Assembly (NCBI GenBank): GCA_963707305.1 | Contig: CAVPPZ010000012.1 | Location: forward strand, 378,370-442,369 | DNA length: 64,000 nucleotides | Direction of reading: 5' to 3' | Source of the DNA: an uncultured Candidatus Rokubacteria bacterium | Lineage (GTDB): Bacteria > Methylomirabilota > Methylomirabilia > Rokubacteriales > CSP1-6 | Part shown: positions 6,068 through 64,000 of the stretch, piece after piece | Layout of the letters: the number at the start of each line of letters is the position of its first letter | How positions within the stretch are numbered: position 1 is the first letter of the stretch | Notes under the pieces: model-generated | The model's input: only the letters and a program-made list of their open reading frames with translations | The model's database searches: none | Told to the model about the DNA's origin: nothing | Program-made: the position numbers and the translations under genes

Positions 6068-6831
6068 AGATCTGGCCGATCATGAAGAAGGAGCTGCGGC
6101 TCTACTTCACCACGCCCGTCGCCTACGGCGTGATGTTCTCCTTCCTGCTCGTGATGGGGTACTTCTTCGCCCAGATCTTCTCGTTCTACACGATGGCCTC
6201 CATGCAGGCCGCGATGAACCCGCAGATGGGCCGCGATCTCAACGTGACGGACAGCGTGTTGCGCCCGCTCTTCTCCAACATGAGCGTGATCCTGCTCCTC
6301 CTCATGCCGCTCGTCACCATGCGGCTCTTCGCGGAGGAGCGGCGGTCGGGCACCATCGAGCTGCTGCTGACGTACCCGGTCCGGGACGGCGCCGTGCTGC
6401 TCGGCAAGTACCTCGCCGCGGTGATGCTGTTCGTGGTGATGCTGCTCCTGACGCTGCTCTATCCGGCCATGGTCATGTACTTCACCCGCGTCGAGTGGGG
6501 GCCGCTGCTCACCGGCTACGTCGGCCTCCTGCTCATGGGCGCCACCTTCATCGCGGTGGGCGTGTGCATCTCGTCGTTCTTCGAGAACCAGATCATGGCG
6601 GGCACCGTCACCTTCATGGTGCTGCTGATGTTCTGGGTCATCGGGTGGAGCGCGGACGCCGCGGGCGGGATCTGGAAGACGATCCTCAGCGAGCTGTCGA
6701 TCATCGAGCACTTCGACACCTTCGCCAAGGGCATCTTCGACACGAAGGACGTCATCTACTACCTGAACTTCACGATCCTCGCGCTCTTCATCGGGCTCAA
6801 GTCGCTCGAGGCGCGACGGTGGAAGGGCTAG
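6064..6831 (+). CDS. ABC-2 type transporter permease (GldF-like)
   Basis: ATGA start/stop overlap with the ATPase gene; six hydrophobic segments. Confidence 0.8.
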   Translation: MKIWPIMKKELRLYFTTPVAYGVMFSFLLVMGYFFAQIFSFYTMASMQAAMNPQMGRDLNVTDSVLRPLFSNMSVILLLLMPLVTMRLFAEERRSGTIELLLTYPVRDGAVLLGKYLAAVMLFVVMLLLTLLYPAMVMYFTRVEWGPLLTGYVGLLLMGATFIAVGVCISSFFENQIMAGTVTFMVLLMFWVIGWSADAAGGIWKTILSELSIIEHFDTFAKGIFDTKDVIYYLNFTILALFIGLKSLEARRWKG

Positions 6832-6832
6832 G

Positions 6833-8355
6833 ATGAGGCGGTTCGGCGACTGGGCGCTCTACGCCGCGATCGCGGTGCTGGCCGCGGCCGTGCTGCTTCC
6901 GTTCGCGCTGCCCGCGCAGGCGCAGTCTCCGCTGGTGGCTGCTGGCCGCCGGCGTGCTCCTCGCGATCGCGTCGTTCCTCGTGCGCATCGGCGACTACAA
7001 GAGCGTGGTCACCCATCGCAACACACGCTACGGCCTCAACACCGTCGTCACCGTGCTCCTGGTGCTCGGGGTGGTGGGGTTCGTGGAGGCGATCTCGGCC
7101 CGGCACAGCGCACGGGTCGATCTCACGGAGAACCGCCGCAACAGCCTCTCGCCGCAGACGATCCAGCTCCTGAAGGCCCTCAAGACGGACGTCCACGCGG
7201 TCGGCTTCTTCCGGACCGATCAGCCGGGCAAGCGGGTGGCCGAGGATCTCTTCAAGCAGTACGCGCGGTACGCCGGCGACAAGTTCACCTGGAAGGTGGT
7301 CGACCCGGACCGCGATCCGAACCTCGCGCGGCGCTACGCCGTGGAGGCGTACGGCACCGTCGTGCTCGAGACCAAGACCAAGTCCGAGAAGGTCACCGAC
7401 GCCGAGGAAGAGAAGCTCACCAACGGCCTCGTCAAGGTGACCCGCGAAGGCAAGCGCGCGATCTACATCGTGCAGGGCCACGGCGAGCACGAGATCACGA
7501 ACACGGAGCGTTCCGGGTTCAGCGAGGCGAAGGGCGCGCTCGAGCGTTCCAACTACGAGGTGAAGCCGCTCGCCCTCGCGCGCGAGGGCAAGGTGCCGGA
7601 CGACGCGGCGGTGGTGATCCTCGCGGGCCCGCGCACGGACCTGTTCGCGCCGGAAATCGACGCCCTCGACGCCTATCTCGGTCAAGAACGGCAAGCTTCT
7701 CGTGATGGTGAACCCGTTCCAGAACGAGGGCATGAAGAAGTGGCTGGTGAAGTACGGGTTCGAGCTGGGCGACAATCTCGTCGTCGAGCCGAATCCGATC
7801 GGCCGGCTCTTCGGCATCGGGCCGGAGGTGCCGATCGTCCAGCAGTACGAGAGTCACGCGATCACGCGCGACATGGGCGGCGTCACCACGCTCTTCCCGC
7901 TCACGCGCAGCGTGGCGGCGGCGAAGGCGCCCGCGCAGGGCCTCACCGTCCAGCTGCTCGCGCGCACGAGCCCGCAGAGCTGGGGCGAGACCAATCGCGA
8001 CGCGCTCCAGCGGGGCGAGGCGCAGCCCGATCCCCAGGATCCGCGCGGCCCCCTGGGGGTGGCGGCGGTGGCCACCAAGGACAAGGCGCGGATCGTGACG
8101 TACGGCACCTCGAACCTCGCGTCCAACCAGTTCCTCAACCTGCAGGGCAACCGCGACTTCTTCCTCAACACCGTGAGCTGGCTGGCCGAGGAAGAGGACC
8201 AGATCTCCATCCGGCCGAAGGACGCGCGACAGTCGCCGGTGTTCCTCACCGCCCAGCAGGGCCAGGCGGTCTTCCTGCTGCCCGTGGTGGTGCTGCCCGC
8301 GCTCGTGCTGGGCGGCGGCATCGTCGCCGTCGTTCGCCGTCGCTCGTCGAAGTAA
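6833..8355 (+). CDS. GldG-like ABC transporter auxiliary protein, frame broken twice
   Basis: MRRFGDWALYAAIAVLAAAVLL / WWLLAAGVLLAIASFLVRIGDY..HAVGFFRTDQPGKRV..YIVQGHGE / KNGKLLVMVNPF...FLNLQGNRDFFLNTVSWLAEEEDQISIRPK, C-terminal TM. Breaks ~6925 and ~7685. Confidence 0.75.
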
Positions 8356-8358
8356 CAC

Positions 8359-10125
8359 GTGCGCTGGCAGACGACGCTCGTCGCCGCCATCCTCCTCGCG
8401 CTCGTCGGGGGCTTCTACTACGTCTACGAGGTCCGCCTCGGCCCCGACCGGGAAAAGGGCGAGGCCCGCAAGGGCCGCGTCTTCGCGACGACCGAGACGA
8501 CCGACGTCACCGCGGTCGAGCTCAAGCGGCCCGACGGGGTCGTGAGGGCCACGCGCGACGGCGAGAGCTGGCAGCTCCTCGAGCCGGTGAAGGCGCGTGG
8601 CGACCGCGGGCCGATCGAGGAGACGCTCACCACGGTGGTGACCGCCAAGATGGACCGGGAGATCGACGCCGCGCCGAAATCGCTCGACGACTTCGGGCTC
8701 GACAAGCCGGCGGCGGAAGTGGATCTGACGCTGAAGGACGGCAAGCGCGTGGCGCTGCTCCTCGGCGGCAAGAGCCCGACGGGCGTCTGGGTCTACGCGA
8801 AGGAGCGCGACAAGCCGAACGTCTTCGTCGTCGGCGAGAGCGTGCTGCGCGACGCCACGCGCCCCGCCAGCGACTTCCGTGACAAGACCGTGCTCGCCTT
8901 CTCCCGGACCGACGTCACCGGCATCGAGATCGTCACCGCCGCCGACACGATCGCGCTCGAGCCCGAGGACCAGGCCTGGAAGATGACGCGGCCCCTCGCG
9001 CGTCCCGCCGACAACGCCATCGTGAACGAGCTGCTCGACAAGCTCGGCGCCGCGCGCGTGAAGGAGTTCGTCGCCGAATCGCCGCCGTCGCTCAAGCCGT
9101 TCGGCCTCGACCGTCCGCTCCGCGTCGTCCTGCACGTGGGCAAGGAAAAGGACCGCGCGTCGCGCACGCTGCTGCTCGGCGACGTGGACCAGGGCAAGAA
9201 GGGCGTCTACGCGATGCGCGCGGGAGAGAGCAGCGTGCTCCTCGTGCCCGAGGAGACCTGGAGGGCGGTGCCGCAGACGGCGGCCGCGCTCCGCGACAAG
9301 ACCGTGGTCGCCTTCGACCGCGAGAAGGTCACGCGCGTCGACATCGAGAGCCCCAAGGGACAGGTCACCGTGACGAAGGAGAAGGACGCCTGGAAGATCA
9401 CGGCGCCCGAAGCCCTGGCCGCCGACCAGGTCGAGGTCGGGGCGGTCCTGAGTCGCCTGCGCGAGCTCCGGGCGCAGGCGTTCCTCAGCGACGACGCCTC
9501 GGGCATCCCGCGCTACCTGGCCAAGCCCGAGGTGAAGGTCACCGTCCATCAAGCGGGCGCGCCGGCGCCGACCATCGTGCTGCTCGCCCCGTCCCCTGAC
9601 ACGCGCGGCGGTCAACCCACCGTGTACGCCGCCGTCGCGGGCAAGGGCCCGGTCGTGCTCGTCGACGGCAAGGCCATCGAGAACGTCGGCCGGACCTCGC
9701 TCCAGCTCCGGGATCGGCGGGTCTTCGCGGGGCTCGAGCCGAAGGACGTCAAGCGCATGCGCGTGAAGGCGGGCGGACAGAGCGCGGTCCTCGAGCGGAG
9801 CGGTGACTCCGAGTGGAAGCTCGTGGAGCCGACCAAAGGCGCCGCGAAATCCTCGAAGGTCGAAGACCTCCTCTACACCCTGCGCGGGCTCAAGTGGGAC
9901 GACATCGCTGCCGATAAACCGGAAACACCCGCGCGCTGGGGGCTCGACGCGCCCGCGTTCGAGGTGACCCTGTTCAAGGCCGATGGCGGAGAAATCGGGA
10001 CCCTGGTGGTCGGCAAGCGCGACGGTGAGCGCTACTTTGCGCGCACCGCGGGGGGACCGGTCTACGCGATCGGTGCGCGGGCGATCGGGGAGCTTCCCAA
10101 GGTCCCGGACGACTTCAAGGGCTGA
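8359..10125 (+). CDS. DUF4340 domain protein (usual partner of GldG-type systems)
   Basis: Intact 588-aa ORF, N-terminal TM, repeated beta-rich modules; position directly after the GldG-like gene. Confidence 0.65.
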
Positions 10126-10146
10126 GCCCCTGTCGGGGCGGCCGGC

Positions 10147-11406
10147 ATGAGCACGCCGGCGCCCGGCAACCTCCGGATCAAGCTGAAGGCGCTGCGACGG
10201 CGCGTCGCGGCGAGCGCGAGGCCCGGCGCGCGGCCGCCGACGCGCACGCGCACCTGGAAGAGCAGCTCCGTCAGTCGCAGAAGATGGACGCGATCGGCCG
10301 CCTGGCGGGCGGCGTCGCCCACGACTTCAACAACCTCCTCACGGTCATCACCGGCCGCACGTCGCTGCTCCTCGACCTGGCCGCGCCCAGCGACCCCGCG
10401 CGCCGCGATCTCACCCTCGTGCTCGAGGCGGGCGAACGGGCGGCCGCGCTCACGCGCCAGCTCCTCGCGTTCAGCCGCAAGCAGATCCTGCAGCCGCGCG
10501 TGCTCGACCTCACGCGCGTCATCGAGGGGCTCGCGCCGATGCTGCGGCGGGTGATCCGCGAGGACGTCGAGCTCTCGATCGTCTCGCGGGGGGCGGGGAG
10601 CGGCGTGCTCGCGGATCCGGGCCAGCTCGAGCAGGTCGTCATGAACCTCGTGGTCAACGCGCGCGACGCCATGCCGCGCGGCGGCCGCGTCACCATCGAG
10701 ACCGCCAACGTCGAGCTGGACGAGGCGTTCGCGCGCGAGCACGTCGGCGTCCGGCCGGGGCCGCACGTGCGGCTCGCGGTGAGCGACACGGGGATCGGGA
10801 TGGACGCCGCGACCCGGGAGCGGATCTTCGAGCCGTTCTTCACGACCAAGCCGGAAGGCCAGGGCACCGGGCTCGGCCTCGCCACGGTCTTCGGGATCGT
10901 CACGCAGAGCGGCGGCACCATCTGGGTCGACAGCGAGCCGGGCCGCGGGACGACGTTCACGATCTACCTGCCGCGCGTCGAGGACACCACGACGCCGGCG
11001 GCGCCGGCTGCCGCGGGCCGGACGCCGCGCGGAACGGAGACGATCCTGTTCGTGGAGGACGACGACGGCGTGCGATTCGTCGGCGAGGACTCCCTGCGGC
11101 GCACTCGGGTACACCGTGCTCAGCGCCCGGAGCGGCGAGGAGGCGCTGCGGGTCAGCGCCGCGCACGCCGCGCGCATCGCGCTCCTCGTGAGCGACATCG
11201 TCATGCCGGGGATGAGCGGCCCGGACCTGTACGCGCAGCTCGCGCTGGCGCGGCCCGAGATGAAGCTGCTGTTCCTCTCCGGGTACGCGCCCGACGCCGC
11301 CGTGCGCCACGGCGTGCTCGATCCGTCGGTCGCGCTGCTCGAGAAGCCGTTCGGCCCGGACGCGCTCGCGCGCAAGGTGCGCGCGGTCCTCGACGCGCCG
11401 GCCTGA
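10147..11406 (+). CDS. hybrid sensor histidine kinase / response regulator, frame broken twice
   Basis: H-box [12 protein letters not shown]-box [11 protein letters not shown]1 DTGIGM, G2 GTGLGLA, then REC ([27 protein letters not shown]). Breaks ~10215 and ~11085. Confidence 0.8.
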
Positions 11407-59026: not shown

Positions 59027-59744
59027 CTAGGTGAGGATCTCGATCGCCAGGTACAGGATCGCGCTGAGGACGAAGCCGCCCCAGAAGGTGCCGTTCAGCG
59101 TGCTGAGCATCTTCTTGCCCGCGCCCGCCGTTCCCACCATCGCGTTGTACTCGGCCGCCGCCATCACGACGAGCAGGACGATCAGCAACCAGAGCTTGGC
59201 GCCGCCCGTGACGGCCGTGAAGAGCGGGAGATGCGACGCCGCGCCCATGAAGAACAGCATCGGGATCGAGAGCATCGTGTTCGTGCGCGAGGCGAATCCC
59301 GCGCGCTGGCCGCGCGGCCGCCGCCTCCGGAATCGCCTGGCCGCCGCCCTTCACCTGCTGCGCCGAGGCCATGACGACCTGCTGCGCGGGCCAGATGACG
59401 AACCACACGTTGAACCACATGAGGCTGCCGAGCATGCCGCCGATGAAGATCGCCCAGCCGTACGAGGTGTCGAAGAACGGGCCCATGCCCATCGTCCCCA
59501 TCCGGTGGAAGAGGATCAGCCAGCCGGTGATGAACGTGATCATCGCGCCCCAGCGGAACCACCAGAGCGCGCGGTTCAGCAGGCCGCCCGCCACCATTCC
59601 GGTGCGCACGGGAGCTTCCACCGTCGCGAAGAATGGGACCTGCACGAAGTTGAAATAGTAGAGCATCCCGATCCACGTGATGCCGGCCAGGAAGTGGAAC
59701 CACCGCAGGATGAACAGCCAGCCTTCTGCTGTGAACAGTGCCAT
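59027..59744 (-). CDS. PuuD-like (urate hydroxylase N-terminal domain type) membrane protein, one frame break
   Basis: MALFTAEGWLFILRWFHFLAGITWIGMLYYFNFVQ.. typical N-terminus; several TM segments. Break ~59325. Confidence 0.5.
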
Positions 59745-59789
59745 CGTCAGCGCCCCCCTTGCCGTGAGGGAATCGTGCGTGAGCGGCCG

Positions 59790-60116
59790 CTACTCCTCCT
59801 CGTCCTCCTCCTCGTCGTCATCATCGTCGAGATCGTCGTCCTCCTCGTCGTCGTCGAGGTCCGCCTCGTCCTCCACGTCCTCGTCTAGGTCGTCGATCTC
59901 GTCGTCGTCCTCGTCGTCCTCATCCTCGTCCTCGTCATCGTCGTCGAAGTCGTCGGCGTCGAAGTCGTCGTCATCATCGTCATCGAGGTCGTCGTCGTCC
60001 TCGTCAGCGTCCTCGTCGACGTCTTTGTCTTCTGCCTCTTCGTCGCCGTCGAGATCCTCATCACGGGCGCGACGAAGGTCGGCGTCGTCATGCCAGGGAC
60101 GTGCACGGAACTGCAT
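59790..60116 (-). CDS. hyper-acidic Asp/Glu-rich small protein
   Basis: ATG at 60116 with a GGAGGA RBS. 108 aa; after residue ~20 almost only D/E with scattered L, A, V, F, I, K, G. Followed 46 nt later by the PuuD-like gene. Confidence 0.55.
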   Translation of the reverse strand: MQFRARPWHDDADLRRARDEDLDGDEEAEDKDVDEDADEDDDDLDDDDDDDFDADDFDDDDEDEDEDDEDDDEIDDLDEDVEDEADLDDDEEDDDLDDDDDEEEDEEE

Positions 60117-60150
60117 GTGAAGGTTCCTCCGGAATCGCGGCAAGGCACGA

Positions 60151-60178
60151 TTGAAAAGCTCGGCGCGAATTATATAGC
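60151..60178 (+). promoter_or_regulatory. possible promoter TTGAAA-16 nt-TATAGC upstream of tRNA-Met
   Basis: AT-richer island in the 60117-60243 intergenic region. The distance to the tRNA 5' end (~66 nt) is long, so weak. Confidence 0.25.
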
Positions 60179-60243
60179 AAATGGCCGAAGTCAATATTCT
60201 GTCGTACACTCGCCTTCGCCTTCGGGCGAACGCCTCCTGGCTC

Positions 60244-60318
60244 GGCGGTGTAGCTCAGCGGCAGAGCAGGGGTCTCATAAGCCCCGTGTCGGAGGTTCAA
60301 TTCCTCCCACCGCCACCA
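60244..60318 (+). tRNA. tRNA-Met (anticodon CAT), elongator type, CCA encoded
   Basis: Hand-folded: acceptor GGCGGTG/CACCGCC (1:72 paired), D stem GCTC/GAGC, anticodon arm GGGGT-CTCATAA-GCCCC, T arm GGAGG-TTCAATT-CCTCC; 75 nt. A lysidine-modified Ile2 identity cannot be excluded. Confidence 0.85.
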
Positions 60319-60339
60319 TTTCCCCTCGTGGAGGGACCC

Positions 60340-61122
60340 TTGAGCGACGTGCTCGTCGAGCGTGAGGGTGCCATCGCCACGGTCGTCTTCAACCGACCTC
60401 GCCTGCGGAACGCCATCAGCCTGACGATGTGGACCGACATCGCGCGCGTCACCCGCGAGCTCGGTGAGGACGAGGGCGTGCGGGCGGTCGTGTATCGCGG
60501 GGCGGGCCGGCAGGCCTTCGCGTCGGGCGCCGACATCTCGGAGTTCGAGGAACAGAGGAAGGACGCGGCGAGCGCGCATCGCTACGGCGCGCAAACCGAA
60601 GCGGCGTATTCCGCGATCCGGCAGTGCGCGAAGCCGACGGTGGCCATGATCTTCGGCTACTGCATGGGCGGCGCGATGGCGGTGGCCATGGCCTGCGACC
60701 TGCGGTTCGCCGCGGAAGGCTCGCGCTTCGGCATCCCGGCCGCCAAGCTGAGCATCGTGTATCCCCCGAGCTCGGTTGGCCAGCTCGTGGACCTCGTTGG
60801 TCCCGCCTCGGCGAAGGACATCCTCTACTCCGCGCGCGTCGTCGACGATCGCGAGGCGCTCGCGATGGGGTTCATCCAGCGGCTCGTCCCCGTGGACGAC
60901 CTCGAGCGCGTGACGTACGAGTACCTGCGCACCGTCGCCGACAACGCACCGCTGTCCGTGAGCGGCAGCAAGGCGACCATCGAGTCCTACCTCGAGGGCA
61001 TGAACGAGGAGCACCGCCGCCGACTCCGGGAGCTGTCGCGGGAGGCGTCGGAGAGCCAGGACTACAAGGAAGGCACGCGCGCGTTCCTCGAGAAGCGGCC
61101 CCCGCGCTTTCAGGGACGGTAA
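60340..61122 (+). CDS. enoyl-CoA hydratase/isomerase family protein
   Basis: ..ATVVFNRPRLRNAIS..VVYRGAGRQAFASGADISEF..IFGYCMGGAMAVAMACD... TTG start after GGAGG; the longer ORF start would overlap the tRNA. Confidence 0.8.
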   Translation: MSDVLVEREGAIATVVFNRPRLRNAISLTMWTDIARVTRELGEDEGVRAVVYRGAGRQAFASGADISEFEEQRKDAASAHRYGAQTEAAYSAIRQCAKPTVAMIFGYCMGGAMAVAMACDLRFAAEGSRFGIPAAKLSIVYPPSSVGQLVDLVGPASAKDILYSARVVDDREALAMGFIQRLVPVDDLERVTYEYLRTVADNAPLSVSGSKATIESYLEGMNEEHRRRLRELSREASESQDYKEGTRAFLEKRPPRFQGR

Positions 61123-61124
61123 GC

Positions 61125-62193
61125 CTGCGCATCGCCGTCCTCAGCTCCACGCCGCCCAGTCCCACCGAGGGCAGCGGGACGTTCGTGGCGCTCGACGGTC
61201 TCGTCCGCGGCCTCACCGCCCTCGGCCACCACGTCGAGTTCCGCCCGCTGCGCCGCCGCTCCGGCGTTCACACGTTCGACCGCTGGCTCTACAACGCGAC
61301 CGTCGCGGCCGATCCGCCGCGCGCCGACCTCGTGCTCGGCGTGGACCTCGATGGGTTCCTGTGGGCCCGGCGCCGTCGCGGCGGCGCGCGCACGTACGTC
61401 GTGGCGCTCAAGGGCATCATCGCGGACGAGCTCCGGAACGAGCGCGGGATCGTGCGCGTGCTGCTCGGCATCCAGGCGCGATGGGAGCGGCGCAACACCG
61501 AGCGGGCGGATCGCGTCATCGTGCCGAGCCGCTACTCGGCAGGCATCGCCGCCGCCCTCTACGACGTGCCCGACGCGCGCATCGCCGTGGTGCCCGAGCC
61601 GATCGATCTCACGGAGTGGCGCCGGCGCTTCGACGCGGCCCGCGCGCCGCGAGACAGCCGGGCGTCCGACCGTGCTCACGGTGGCGCGCCTCTATCCCCG
61701 AAAGCGGGTGGAGGACCTGCTGGAGGCGGCCGCGCTCCTCCGGACGCGAATCGCGGATGTCCAGGTCCGCATCGTAGGGGAGGGGCCCGAGGGCGCCCGC
61801 CTGCGCGCCGTGCATGCGCGCCTCGGCCTCGGGGATTCGGTCGCCTTTCTCGGCCACGTGACGCGCGACGCGCTGGCGCTAGAATATTCGAGGGCGCGCT
61901 GCTTCTGCCTGCCCACGGTGCAGGAGGGCTTCGGCCTCGTCTTCGCCGAGGCGATGGCAGCCGGCCTCCCGGTGGTGGCATGTCGGGCGGCGGCGGTTCC
62001 TGAGCTGGTGCAAGACGGCGAGACCGGCCTCCTCGTCCCACCCCGCACGCCGGCCGCGCTCGCGGCGGCGCTGGAGCGGATGCTCGGCGACGACAGCCTG
62101 AGGAAGGAGATGGGCATGGCAGGACGCATCCGGGTCGAAGCGCTCGATCTCGTTCCGGTGGCGCGCCGGTTCCTGGAGGCCGTGTCGGCGTGA
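61125..62193 (+). CDS. GT4-family (group 1) glycosyltransferase, one frame break, start unclear
   Basis: LRIAVLSSTPPSPTEGSGT..; C-terminal ..LPTVQEGFGLVFAEAMAAGLPVVA..E..V.DGETGLLV. Break ~61655. No canonical start codon near the LRIAVLSS N-terminus. Confidence 0.7.
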
Positions 62194-63005
62194 ACGGCAT
62201 CGCCTATAGCAGCCGTCGCTTCACGTTCGCGGCGGCCCATCGGTACTGGGTCGATGCCTGGTCCGCCGCCGAGAACGAGACGTTCTTCGGTCGCCTCACC
62301 GTCCCCCACGGGCACAACTACGCCCTCGAGGTGACCGTGCGCGGCCCGATCGATCCGCAGACGGGCATGGTGATCAATCTCACCGACCTGAAGGCGATCG
62401 TGCACGACACGGTGGTCGAGCGATTCGACCACGCCGATCTGAACGCGGACGCGCTCTTCCGTGGCCGCGTGCCCACCACCGAGAACATCGCGATCGTGGT
62501 GTGGGGCCTGCTCGTCGCCAAGCTCGGCGCCGATCGGCTCTGGCAGGTGCGCGTGTGGGAAGACGAGACGCTGTTCGTCGACTACCGCGGCGAGGAGTCG
62601 ATGATCGAGATCACGCGCGTCTATCACTTCAGCGCCGCGCACCGGCTCGTGAGCCCGCGCCTCACCGCCGCGGAGAACGCGGCGCTCTACGGCCCGTGCG
62701 CGCGTCCCCACGGGCACAACTACTACGTGGAGGTCACGCTGGCCGGCGTGCCGGATCCCGTCACCGGCATGGCCGTCGATCTCGGGCTCGTCGACGCGAC
62801 GGTGAGCGAGCGTCTCCTGCAGCACGTCGATCACCACACGCTCGAGACGTCGCCGGCGCTTCCCGGCGTCATCACGACCGGGGAAGGGCTCGCGCGCGCG
62901 TTCTGGGACGTGCTGGCGCCGGCGCTCCCGGCGACGTCGCTGCGCCGCGTGCGCGTCGTGGAGACCGCGAAGAATCGCTTCGAGTATCGGGGGGAAGCCG
63001 CGTGA
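62190..63005 (+). CDS. queD: tandem-domain 6-carboxy-5,6,7,8-tetrahydropterin synthase (QueD/PTPS family)
   Basis: Two PTPS-like halves: [17 protein letters not shown] and [22 protein letters not shown]. Only the second keeps the C-x3-HGH QueD motif. Confidence 0.75.
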
Positions 63006-64000
63006 TCGAAAAGCTCGTCGAACAGCTGTTGAAGGAGCTCGGAGAGGATCCGCATCGCGAAGGTCTCCAGAAGACGCCGGAGCGCGTGGCGAAGGCGCTG
63101 GAGTACCTGACGTCGGGCTACGACAAGAACGTCGACGAGGTGCTCAACGACGCGCTGTTCGTCGAGGACTACGACGAGATGGTGGTCGTCAAGGACATCG
63201 ACTTCTTCTCGCTGTGCGTGCCCAGCAAGCAGATCGTCAACGCCGTGGATGGCGCGAAGCCTGCGCGACTGGTGAACGTCGGTGACCGACTGTGGACCCT
63301 GCACCAGGGATTCATGAAGGAAACGACGGTCACGTCGATCACGGCGCGGAAAACGCGGGAGATCGTCGAGGTCATTACGTCCGGTGGCGTCTTCCGTCTC
63401 ACGCCCGATCATCCGCTCATGACGGCCGAAGGCTGGCGTGAGGCACGAGATCTCAAGCCGGATGACCAGGTCGAGTGGATCAATCCGAAGTCGCTGTGTC
63501 GCGAGCGCTATCGTCCGCAGCCGGGCTACGCGACGGGATACGTCATTGGCGCCGTGGCGGCTGACGGCAGCATCCAAGACGGCCGCCGCATCGCGGTCGT
63601 CATCAAGAGCGAAAGCTTCGCCGAGAAGTACTGCTCCATGCTTACTCAGGCGTTTCCCCCCTTGGCTCCCTCGATCGAGCGCGTGAAAGTGCCGTCCGGC
63701 TTCCATGGGCACGAGATCCCCATGTTTCGTGTCCGCACGGTGTCTCGGTCGATCGGCGAGAAACTCTGCCGCTGGCTCGGAGTCTCGGAGGAAGGTTCGC
63801 GAAGCAAGACGAGGACGTTCCAATTTCCTGATGTCGTGACGTCCTCGCAGGAAATGATGCAGGGTTTCCTCGATGGGTACTGCGACGGCGATGGATCGAA
63901 GGACACGCGACGGGGCGCGCGCATCTTCAGCGCGAATCATGAGTTTGCTTCGAAGCTCGGCCACGCCCTCGGCGTAGCAGTTGGGCGTCATGGAGACTAC
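63002..64000 (+). CDS. folE: GTP cyclohydrolase I (FolE) N-extein followed by an intein; partial, runs off the window
   Basis: GTG overlapping the queD stop. [51 protein letters not shown] matches FolE up to the S-x-CEHH block, then intein sequence. Not in the ORF track because there is no stop before 64000. Confidence 0.8.
63215..64000 (+). mobile_element. intein with LAGLIDADG homing-endonuclease domain (N-terminal ~260 aa visible)
   Basis: Cys1 at 63215; block B-like [10 protein letters not shown] (~63401); LAGLIDADG motifs [13 protein letters not shown] (~63536) and [13 protein letters not shown] (~63860). Confidence 0.75.

Follow-up and report, generated by a model that had tools for sequence, protein, structure and literature searches.

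The stretch of DNA analyzed here (64,000 nucleotides of contig CAVPPZ010000012.1 of an uncultured Candidatus Rokubacteria bacterium, GC 69.9%; hereafter the window) ends within a folE gene, which encodes GTP cyclohydrolase I (FolE). As judged from its sequence and from those of its relatives, this gene very probably holds a class 1 intein of canonical type, ~334 residues long, in which a LAGLIDADG homing endonuclease is embedded; the insertion point lies after Leu71 and directly before the CEHH motif, whose Cys is a zinc ligand. The folE frame starts with a GTG that overlaps the TGA stop of the upstream gene (GTGA, 63002-63005) and stays open for 333 codons on the forward strand, from 63002 to the window end at 64000; it is absent from the list of open reading frames (ORFs) because no stop codon occurs before the window ends. 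Residues 1-71 (63002-63214, forward strand) are the FolE N-extein, which is matched by Pfam PF01227 and NCBIfam FolE models and at whose end the alignments to GTP cyclohydrolase I (GCH1) structures of the PDB stop. At codon 72 (TGC, 63215-63217) the FolE reading ceases and an insert that begins with CVPSKQ takes over. The portion of the insert inside the window (63215-64000, forward strand) comprises the first 262 of its ~334 residues, which take in the splicing (HINT) region at the N-terminus and the greater part of the LAGLIDADG endonuclease domain, as delimited by profile and PDB matches and by complete homologues.

Profile searches with the window ORF agreed with this division. Amino acids 2-72 matched positions 1-71 of the 179 in the Pfam GTP_cyclohydroI profile (E 4e-19), and three NCBIfam FolE models matched at scores below their cut-offs, the window covering only profile positions 1-71 of 179. 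Solved GCH1 chains aligned as far as DIDMFSMC and then ended, and residue 72 of the query, which is the first residue of the insert, aligned with index 87 of the 196-residue chain 1fb1_A; we take this index to be the zinc-ligand Cys141, on the assumption that 1fb1_A spans human GCH1 residues 55-250. Four intein motifs are found within the insert on the forward strand: block A (amino acids 72-84, 63215-63253), in which Cys1, the first nucleophile, is invariant among relatives; block B (63395-63436) with T134-P-D-H137, a T-x-x-H motif whose two defining residues are both invariant; a first LAGLIDADG motif (63536-63574) with the catalytic Asp D188, next to an invariant G189; and a second LAGLIDADG motif (63860-63898) with the catalytic Asp D297, part of an invariant D295-G296-D297. 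Pfam LAGLIDADG_3 scored 31.2 bits against a cut-off of 22.5, with its best stretch at amino acids 286-323. Matches to Intein_splicing (E 6e-5), PT-HINT and several NCBIfam intein models were weaker, those of Intein_splicing and PT-HINT falling below the Pfam cut-offs in the window ORF and being stronger in its relatives. An earlier interpretation of this DNA, made from the letters and the ORF list and referred to here as the sequence-only reading, had described a FolE N-terminus up to residue 71, a Cys1 at codon 72 (63215) followed by a T-x-x-H block, and two LAGLIDADG motifs, and had ascribed the missing ORF entry to a frame that runs off the window. All of this holds: the FolE part is recovered by Pfam, NCBIfam and PDB alignments, the Cys1 codon is placed exactly to the base, both LAGLIDADG motifs lie in the insert with LAGLIDADG_3 above cut-off, and the profile searches that it had proposed scored the insert as an intein with a LAGLIDADG endonuclease.

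The C-terminal half of the element is known through its relatives. More than 110 full-length proteins of 521-547 amino acids, 64-89% identical to the window ORF, were retrieved from 5.8 billion clustered proteins, the closest being P0002 (89%) and P0001 (88%); the intein of P0002 alone is 88% identical to that of the window by tblastn. In every full-length relative examined the insert ends with TFLVAGHLTHN, after which the frame continues with CEHHLLPF and the entire C-terminus of FolE. C72, T134, H137, D295-G296-D297, H404, N405, C406 (the +1 residue), H408, H409 and C477 are invariant in 114 full-length relatives, at least 90% of which also conserve D188, and Cys1 is likewise invariant among 12 inteins from three phyla. 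When the intein is removed, the FolE sequences of the relatives span the whole PF01227 profile, with C406, H409 and the second zinc-ligand Cys, C477, invariant. Two further Cys residues inside the intein are invariant across the three phyla: intein residue 95 (C166 of the window ORF, nucleotides 63497-63499), in the sequence SLCR, where the N-terminal splicing region ends, and intein residue 319, in block F with the sequence F[KT]CEP.

Intein-bearing and intein-free alleles were compared in a presence/absence scan that used one genome per GTDB species. The scan found 23 folE genes with the intein, ~1560 nucleotides long, in Candidatus Rokubacteria/Rokuibacteriota, Nitrospira and Actinomycetota (including Rubrobacteraceae), and 57 without it, 561 nucleotides long, nearly all of them labelled Rokubacteria/Methylomirabilota. 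The junctions are codon-exact: with a slash marking the insertion point, occupied genes read S[LM]/C[VI]P[SG][KR] at the first junction and HN/CEHH at the second; the sequence in empty ones is S[LMIV]/CEHH. Over its final 9 kb the window is collinear with an intein-bearing locus, L081 (83.4% nucleotide identity over 59051-63994), and with an intein-free one, L025, from a Rokuibacteriota metagenome-assembled genome (MAG), which is 82.2% identical to the window and whose homology ends at 63202, twelve bases before the insertion point. Compared with each other, L081 and L025 differ at the folE site by a clean insertion of 1002 nucleotides. Synteny and identity, together with the GC content of 69.9%, place the window in Candidatus Rokubacteria (phylum Methylomirabilota). 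The sequence-only reading had placed the insertion directly before the zinc-ligand Cys of CEHH and had proposed a search for a His-Asn end, an in-frame CEHH and a FolE C-extein; the relatives display exactly this arrangement, and their HN/CEHH junctions, the intein-free S[LMIV]/CEHH sequences and the PDB alignment all support that placement.

The presence of the intein is patchy among close relatives, and alleles with and without it are interleaved, because the nearest extein neighbours of intein-bearing alleles are often intein-free. For instance, the exteins of L003 (with intein) and L047 (without) are 97.3% identical, and those of P0001 (with) and L024 (without) are 95.7% identical. Two intein-bearing folE genes from groundwater Rokubacteria MAGs (L017, 5605-7042; L021, 6001-7504) have a frame change in the C-extein, with ~37 and ~15 C-extein residues missing, respectively. 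These may be decaying alleles or MAG errors, and pairwise comparisons that involve either of them are unreliable, given their frame-shifted C-exteins.

An AlphaFold2 model of P0002, built from the 114-sequence alignment, had a mean predicted local distance difference test score (pLDDT) of 80, with most of the endonuclease core at or above 89. In a Foldseek search of the PDB the model matched the VMA endonuclease-inteins 7qsu, 7qss and 7qst (E 1e-16 to 8e-13), and GCH1 structures were aligned across the interruption, with template modelling (TM) scores of 0.86-0.92 on the target and a root-mean-square deviation of ~1.8 Å. In the model, then, both exteins are predicted to make up one FolE fold into which the intein is inserted as a module.

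The assignment to class 1 follows from Cys1, the T-x-x-H of block B, the colinear intein-free alleles and the HINT fold seen in both profiles and model, and the endonuclease is assigned to the LAGLIDADG type by two motifs that each end in an acidic catalytic residue (D188 and D297). The sequence-only reading of a FolE split by an intein is thus supported. Two other assignments were considered and rejected. Class 3 inteins lack an N-terminal nucleophile and are recognized by a Trp(B:12)-Cys(F:4)-Thr(G:5) triad; here an invariant Cys1 is present and, with the blocks numbered by our own alignment to the textbook ones, B:12 is occupied by Leu, Val or Ile and F:4 by Ser, and an invariant block F Cys stands three positions later. 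Bacterial intein-like (BIL) domains are HINT domains of variable, often secreted proteins and usually come without a +1 nucleophile or an endonuclease; in this case the host is a conserved enzyme with the insertion in its catalytic site, and the element contains an endonuclease and is followed by an invariant +1 Cys.

These features suggest the following scheme. Translation would yield a precursor of ~521 amino acids in which the FolE fold is interrupted. Cys1 would undergo an N-S acyl shift, probably aided by the Thr and His of block B, a role proposed from their conservation, and the resulting thioester would be attacked by the +1 Cys. The terminal Asn would then cyclize with assistance from the penultimate His and so release the intein, after which an S-N shift would restore the peptide bond and leave an ordinary FolE of ~187 amino acids, with the +1 Cys becoming a zinc ligand. 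The freed endonuclease presumably cuts intein-free folE at the conserved site in which TTCTCGCTG is directly followed by TGCGAGCATCAT, a site that is also found in L025, and repair from an intein-bearing copy could then copy the element in. Such homing would explain both the patchy distribution and the near-identical inteins that are found in diverged folE genes of Nitrospira.

The latter are the inteins of L014 (6211-7227) and L015 (Nitrospira sp. CR1.3 and NFB02), whose synonymous divergence (dS) is 0.05 at 98% nucleotide identity; for the exteins of the same two genes dS is 1.19 and nucleotide identity 85%. In a sliding window, identity stays at 96-100% along almost the entire intein; it is 81-87% for the exteins and 70-90% for the genes nearby. 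Because near-identical inteins sit in diverged exteins, this sharply bounded island shows a recent horizontal copy of the intein alone. The inteins of L014 and L016, on the other hand, are 61% identical in genes whose exteins are 80% identical; they are far more diverged than the exteins, and different intein lineages therefore circulate. Between phyla, the identity of the intein equals or exceeds that of the extein (63 vs. 62%, 51 vs. 50% and 51.5 vs. 46%), and within groups the intein evolves faster (intein 70% vs. extein 79% identity). The GC content at third codon positions (GC3) is lower in the intein than in the extein in all 9 genomes checked (76 vs. 90 in the window). The ratio of nonsynonymous to synonymous substitution rates (dN/dS) is 0.05-0.23 for the intein and 0.04-0.18 for its endonuclease domain, the near-identical L014/L015 pair excepted (0.36, few substitutions); the endonuclease domain is thus under purifying selection. 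The exteins of intein-bearing alleles, with dN/dS of 0.03-0.19, are under strong purifying selection as well. The host gene is therefore functional, which requires splicing. A phage carrier was also sought: a tblastn search with the intein in 50,697 phage records yielded nothing beyond a 23% match within a tape-measure gene, the best 80 of 142 FolE loci of IMG/VR were all of intein-free length, and an intein-profile scan of IMG/VR returned no match.

Four points weigh against this interpretation as applied to the window. First, whatever follows 64000 in the window gene, comprising the last 72 intein residues with their His-Asn end, the +1 Cys and the C-extein, is deduced from relatives; neither the last 63 nucleotides of the window nor the 32-nucleotide junction had an exact match in the metagenome contigs scanned. 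Second, position 4 of block F, again in our own alignment to the textbook block, is Ser, and the usual residue is Asp. Third, the P0002 model is poor at the C-terminal junction (residues 397-409, pLDDT below 50). Fourth, intein divergence exceeds extein divergence in most of the Rokubacteria pairs, which fits old or multiple lineages and by itself is no proof of ongoing homing in the genome of the window.

Taken as a whole, the evidence points first to a selfish mobile element. The best surviving alternative, which is compatible with a class 1 intein rather than exclusive of it, is that the intein has been domesticated as a regulator: conditional splicing, controlled by a Cys1-Cys+1 disulfide or by zinc at the +1 Cys, would switch FolE post-translationally, and the endonuclease would be inactive or of no consequence. 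Other inteins are known whose splicing responds to redox state or zinc, and in the folE genes neither Cys1 nor the +1 Cys varies, the +1 Cys serves as a metal ligand in the mature enzyme, purifying selection extends over the whole intein and the element has persisted at one site across three phyla. However, close relatives do without the intein, so that it is dispensable; it lies in a recent horizontal transfer island in Nitrospira and has a deviant GC3; and the catalytic Asp residues of its endonuclease are conserved, with endonuclease-less mini versions existing besides. This is the pattern of a selfish homing element, and we therefore regard regulation as doubtful. If it were true, these soil bacteria would couple the supply of the common pterin precursor, from which folate, preQ0 and biopterin-type cofactors derive, to their redox or metal status.

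Far less probable still is that the insertion no longer splices, being either a decayed intein or a non-splicing BIL domain, so that this folE copy is a pseudogene and the activity is supplied by another gene, such as folE2. The C-extein lesions of L017 and L021, i.e., 2 of the 23 intein-bearing alleles, and an apparent frameshift in another gene nearby in the window could be read in this way, but all splicing residues are invariant in the 114 relatives, the low extein dN/dS of intein-bearing alleles makes sense only when mature FolE arises, no stop interrupts the 333 codons of the window frame, insertion into a conserved catalytic site ahead of a +1 Cys is unlike the BIL pattern, and no second folE was found in the 64 kb of the window. 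An assembly chimera or a gene-calling artefact that joined folE to an unrelated endonuclease gene, which might be thought of because the window ends inside the element and its source is probably a metagenome assembly, is refuted by the same in-frame architecture in more than 110 independent protein clusters (JGI, ENA, NCBI and Logan), on contigs of up to 180 kb and in a complete genome of 4.07 Mb, with codon-exact junctions.

The intein of FolE belongs to a group of its own. Searched with HMMER against 1.84 billion representatives, the window intein gave only 329 matches at E ≤1e-3; FolE exteins were present in ~60 of the top 90, with E values down to 1e-76. Full FolE-intein forms range from 511 to 556 amino acids, with identities down to 28%, and the place of the intein in the profile does not change. 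Their +1 residue is Cys throughout and their +2 residue varies (E, V, Q, S, A or P); more distant FolE inteins end with KN or AN and retain the +1 Cys. Short inserts of 158, 190 and 227 residues occupy the same FolE site in P0183, P0157 and P0171, respectively, and no LAGLIDADG match was found in P0183, P0171, P0163 or P0144. The short-insert FolE proteins are mini-intein derivatives, and there is one FolE insertion site, which is occupied by an old and diverse intein lineage.

The nearest relatives outside FolE are inteins of ribonucleotide reductase, DnaE, a PIF1-like helicase and the phage terminase large subunit (E 3e-8 to 4e-6), which are 27-35% identical over up to 245 residues and are likewise full inteins with LAGLIDADG_3 and Intein_splicing domains. 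They differ in host and insertion site, however, and rank well below the FolE inteins, which are a group of their own. Among solved structures, sequence relatives are limited to the N-terminal part of the Mtu RecA intein (PI-MtuI; 2in0, 2imz and 3ifj) and a BIL domain (2lwy, a weak match of the N-terminal profile). The Mtu RecA intein, which also has a +1 Cys, shares the class 1 layout, Cys1 and the T-x-x-H of block B, and is the best PDB sequence match of the N-terminal splicing region (amino acids 76-158; E 2.5e-5 with the window ORF and ~3e-6 with the intein profile). It differs in that its host is RecA and that the likeness is confined to ~80 residues of the N-terminal HINT half, the C-terminal half having no detectable similarity to the solved Mtu RecA chains, which are engineered mini-inteins without an endonuclease. 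The best structural matches, the VMA inteins of Thermococcus litoralis and Pyrococcus horikoshii, share a HINT domain with an inserted LAGLIDADG endonuclease domain, but their sequence identity is 16-18% and their host is an archaeal V-ATPase; the global TM-score is low (0.23-0.36), as the query also holds FolE and the domain orientations differ. The inteins of Pyrococcus abyssi MoaA and Mycobacterium SufB have a Cys1/Cys+1 pair in common with that of FolE, but no sequence relationship was found. Both reside in non-replicative enzymes connected with metals or cofactors, and their Cys1/Cys+1 disulfide can make splicing redox-sensitive.

The element is thus of a textbook kind, and FolE as its host is new. 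The 15 leading bacterial intein hosts of a 2015 survey (PMC4760082) do not include FolE, and full-text literature searches found no paper that links an intein with FolE, GTP cyclohydrolase or Rokubacteria, although a listing in a supplementary table or an intein registry is possible. The sequence-only reading had also put FolE outside the well-known intein hosts, in accord with that top-15 list and the literature searches. Source databases that give a name call the intein-bearing proteins plain "GTP cyclohydrolase I", and intein-bearing FolE is therefore under-annotated; FolE proteins of 521 amino acids may be misjudged by gene callers and pathway predictors. A coenzyme-biosynthesis enzyme is hereby added to a list of intein hosts that is dominated by proteins of replication, repair and nucleotide metabolism. 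The folE alleles of uncultured bacteria from soil and groundwater form a natural series that covers the life cycle of inteins, from full inteins and mini-inteins to sister species with an empty site, and that includes one transfer of very recent date. The position directly before a metal-ligand Cys makes this intein a convenient test case for zinc- or redox-conditional splicing.

Upstream of folE in the window lie, on the forward strand, a gene for a GT4-family glycosyltransferase (61351-62193; NCBIfam GT4 matches), whose stop overlaps the start of the next gene in an order that is kept in relatives, and a 271-amino-acid gene with two PTPS/QueD-family domains (62190-63005; Pfam PTPS, E 6e-64, in two stretches), which is probably co-translated with folE. 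Both here and in relatives of the window, the genes stand in the order GT4 glycosyltransferase, PTPS, PTPS, FolE (with intein), SDR oxidoreductase, Fe-S assembly protein, MoaD/MoaE and TilS; several start and stop codons overlap in this cluster, whose counterpart in L081 is at 6336-10288. In relatives the two PTPS/QueD-family genes are separate (137 and 134 amino acids) with a 4-nucleotide overlap, and an indel of 4 nucleotides near 62600 fuses them in the window (GAGGAGTCGATGATC vs. GAGGCG----TGATC in L081); the fusion is either natural or the product of an assembly indel. A CxxxHGH motif, read by eye, is found in the second PTPS domain only. The downstream SDR matched generic SDR-type models only, none of which reached a curated cut-off, and no sepiapterin reductase model was among the 25 matches listed for it. 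The sequence-only reading had seen in this neighbourhood a queD-folE pair in which splicing would gate the supply of 7-deazaguanine and folate precursors. A PTPS/QueD-family gene does lie upstream, but neither the pair nor a queuosine role is established, given the fused double PTPS and the GT-PTPS-PTPS-FolE-SDR cluster. The product of FolE is a precursor common to the pterin, folate and queuosine routes, and the cluster, taken as a lead only, resembles a pterin pathway (biopterin-type, possibly glycosylated) at least as much as a queuosine one.

On the opposite strand, an ORF of 386 amino acids that overlies folE (62831-63991) had no family match and looks like a high-GC shadow frame. Farther upstream, the gene for a Urate_ox_N-like membrane protein (59042-59744, minus strand) is split over two frames near 59311-59337, and its L081 orthologue is a single ORF of 242 amino acids; the split is a frameshift that stems from either a pseudogene or a sequencing error. 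An imperfect (TCG/TCC)n trinucleotide array of ~250 nucleotides (59797-60045) adjoins a tRNA-Met gene (60244-60318), and the minus strand of the array carries an ORF of 139 amino acids (59790-60209) that is extremely acidic, being rich in Asp and Glu, and has no family match.

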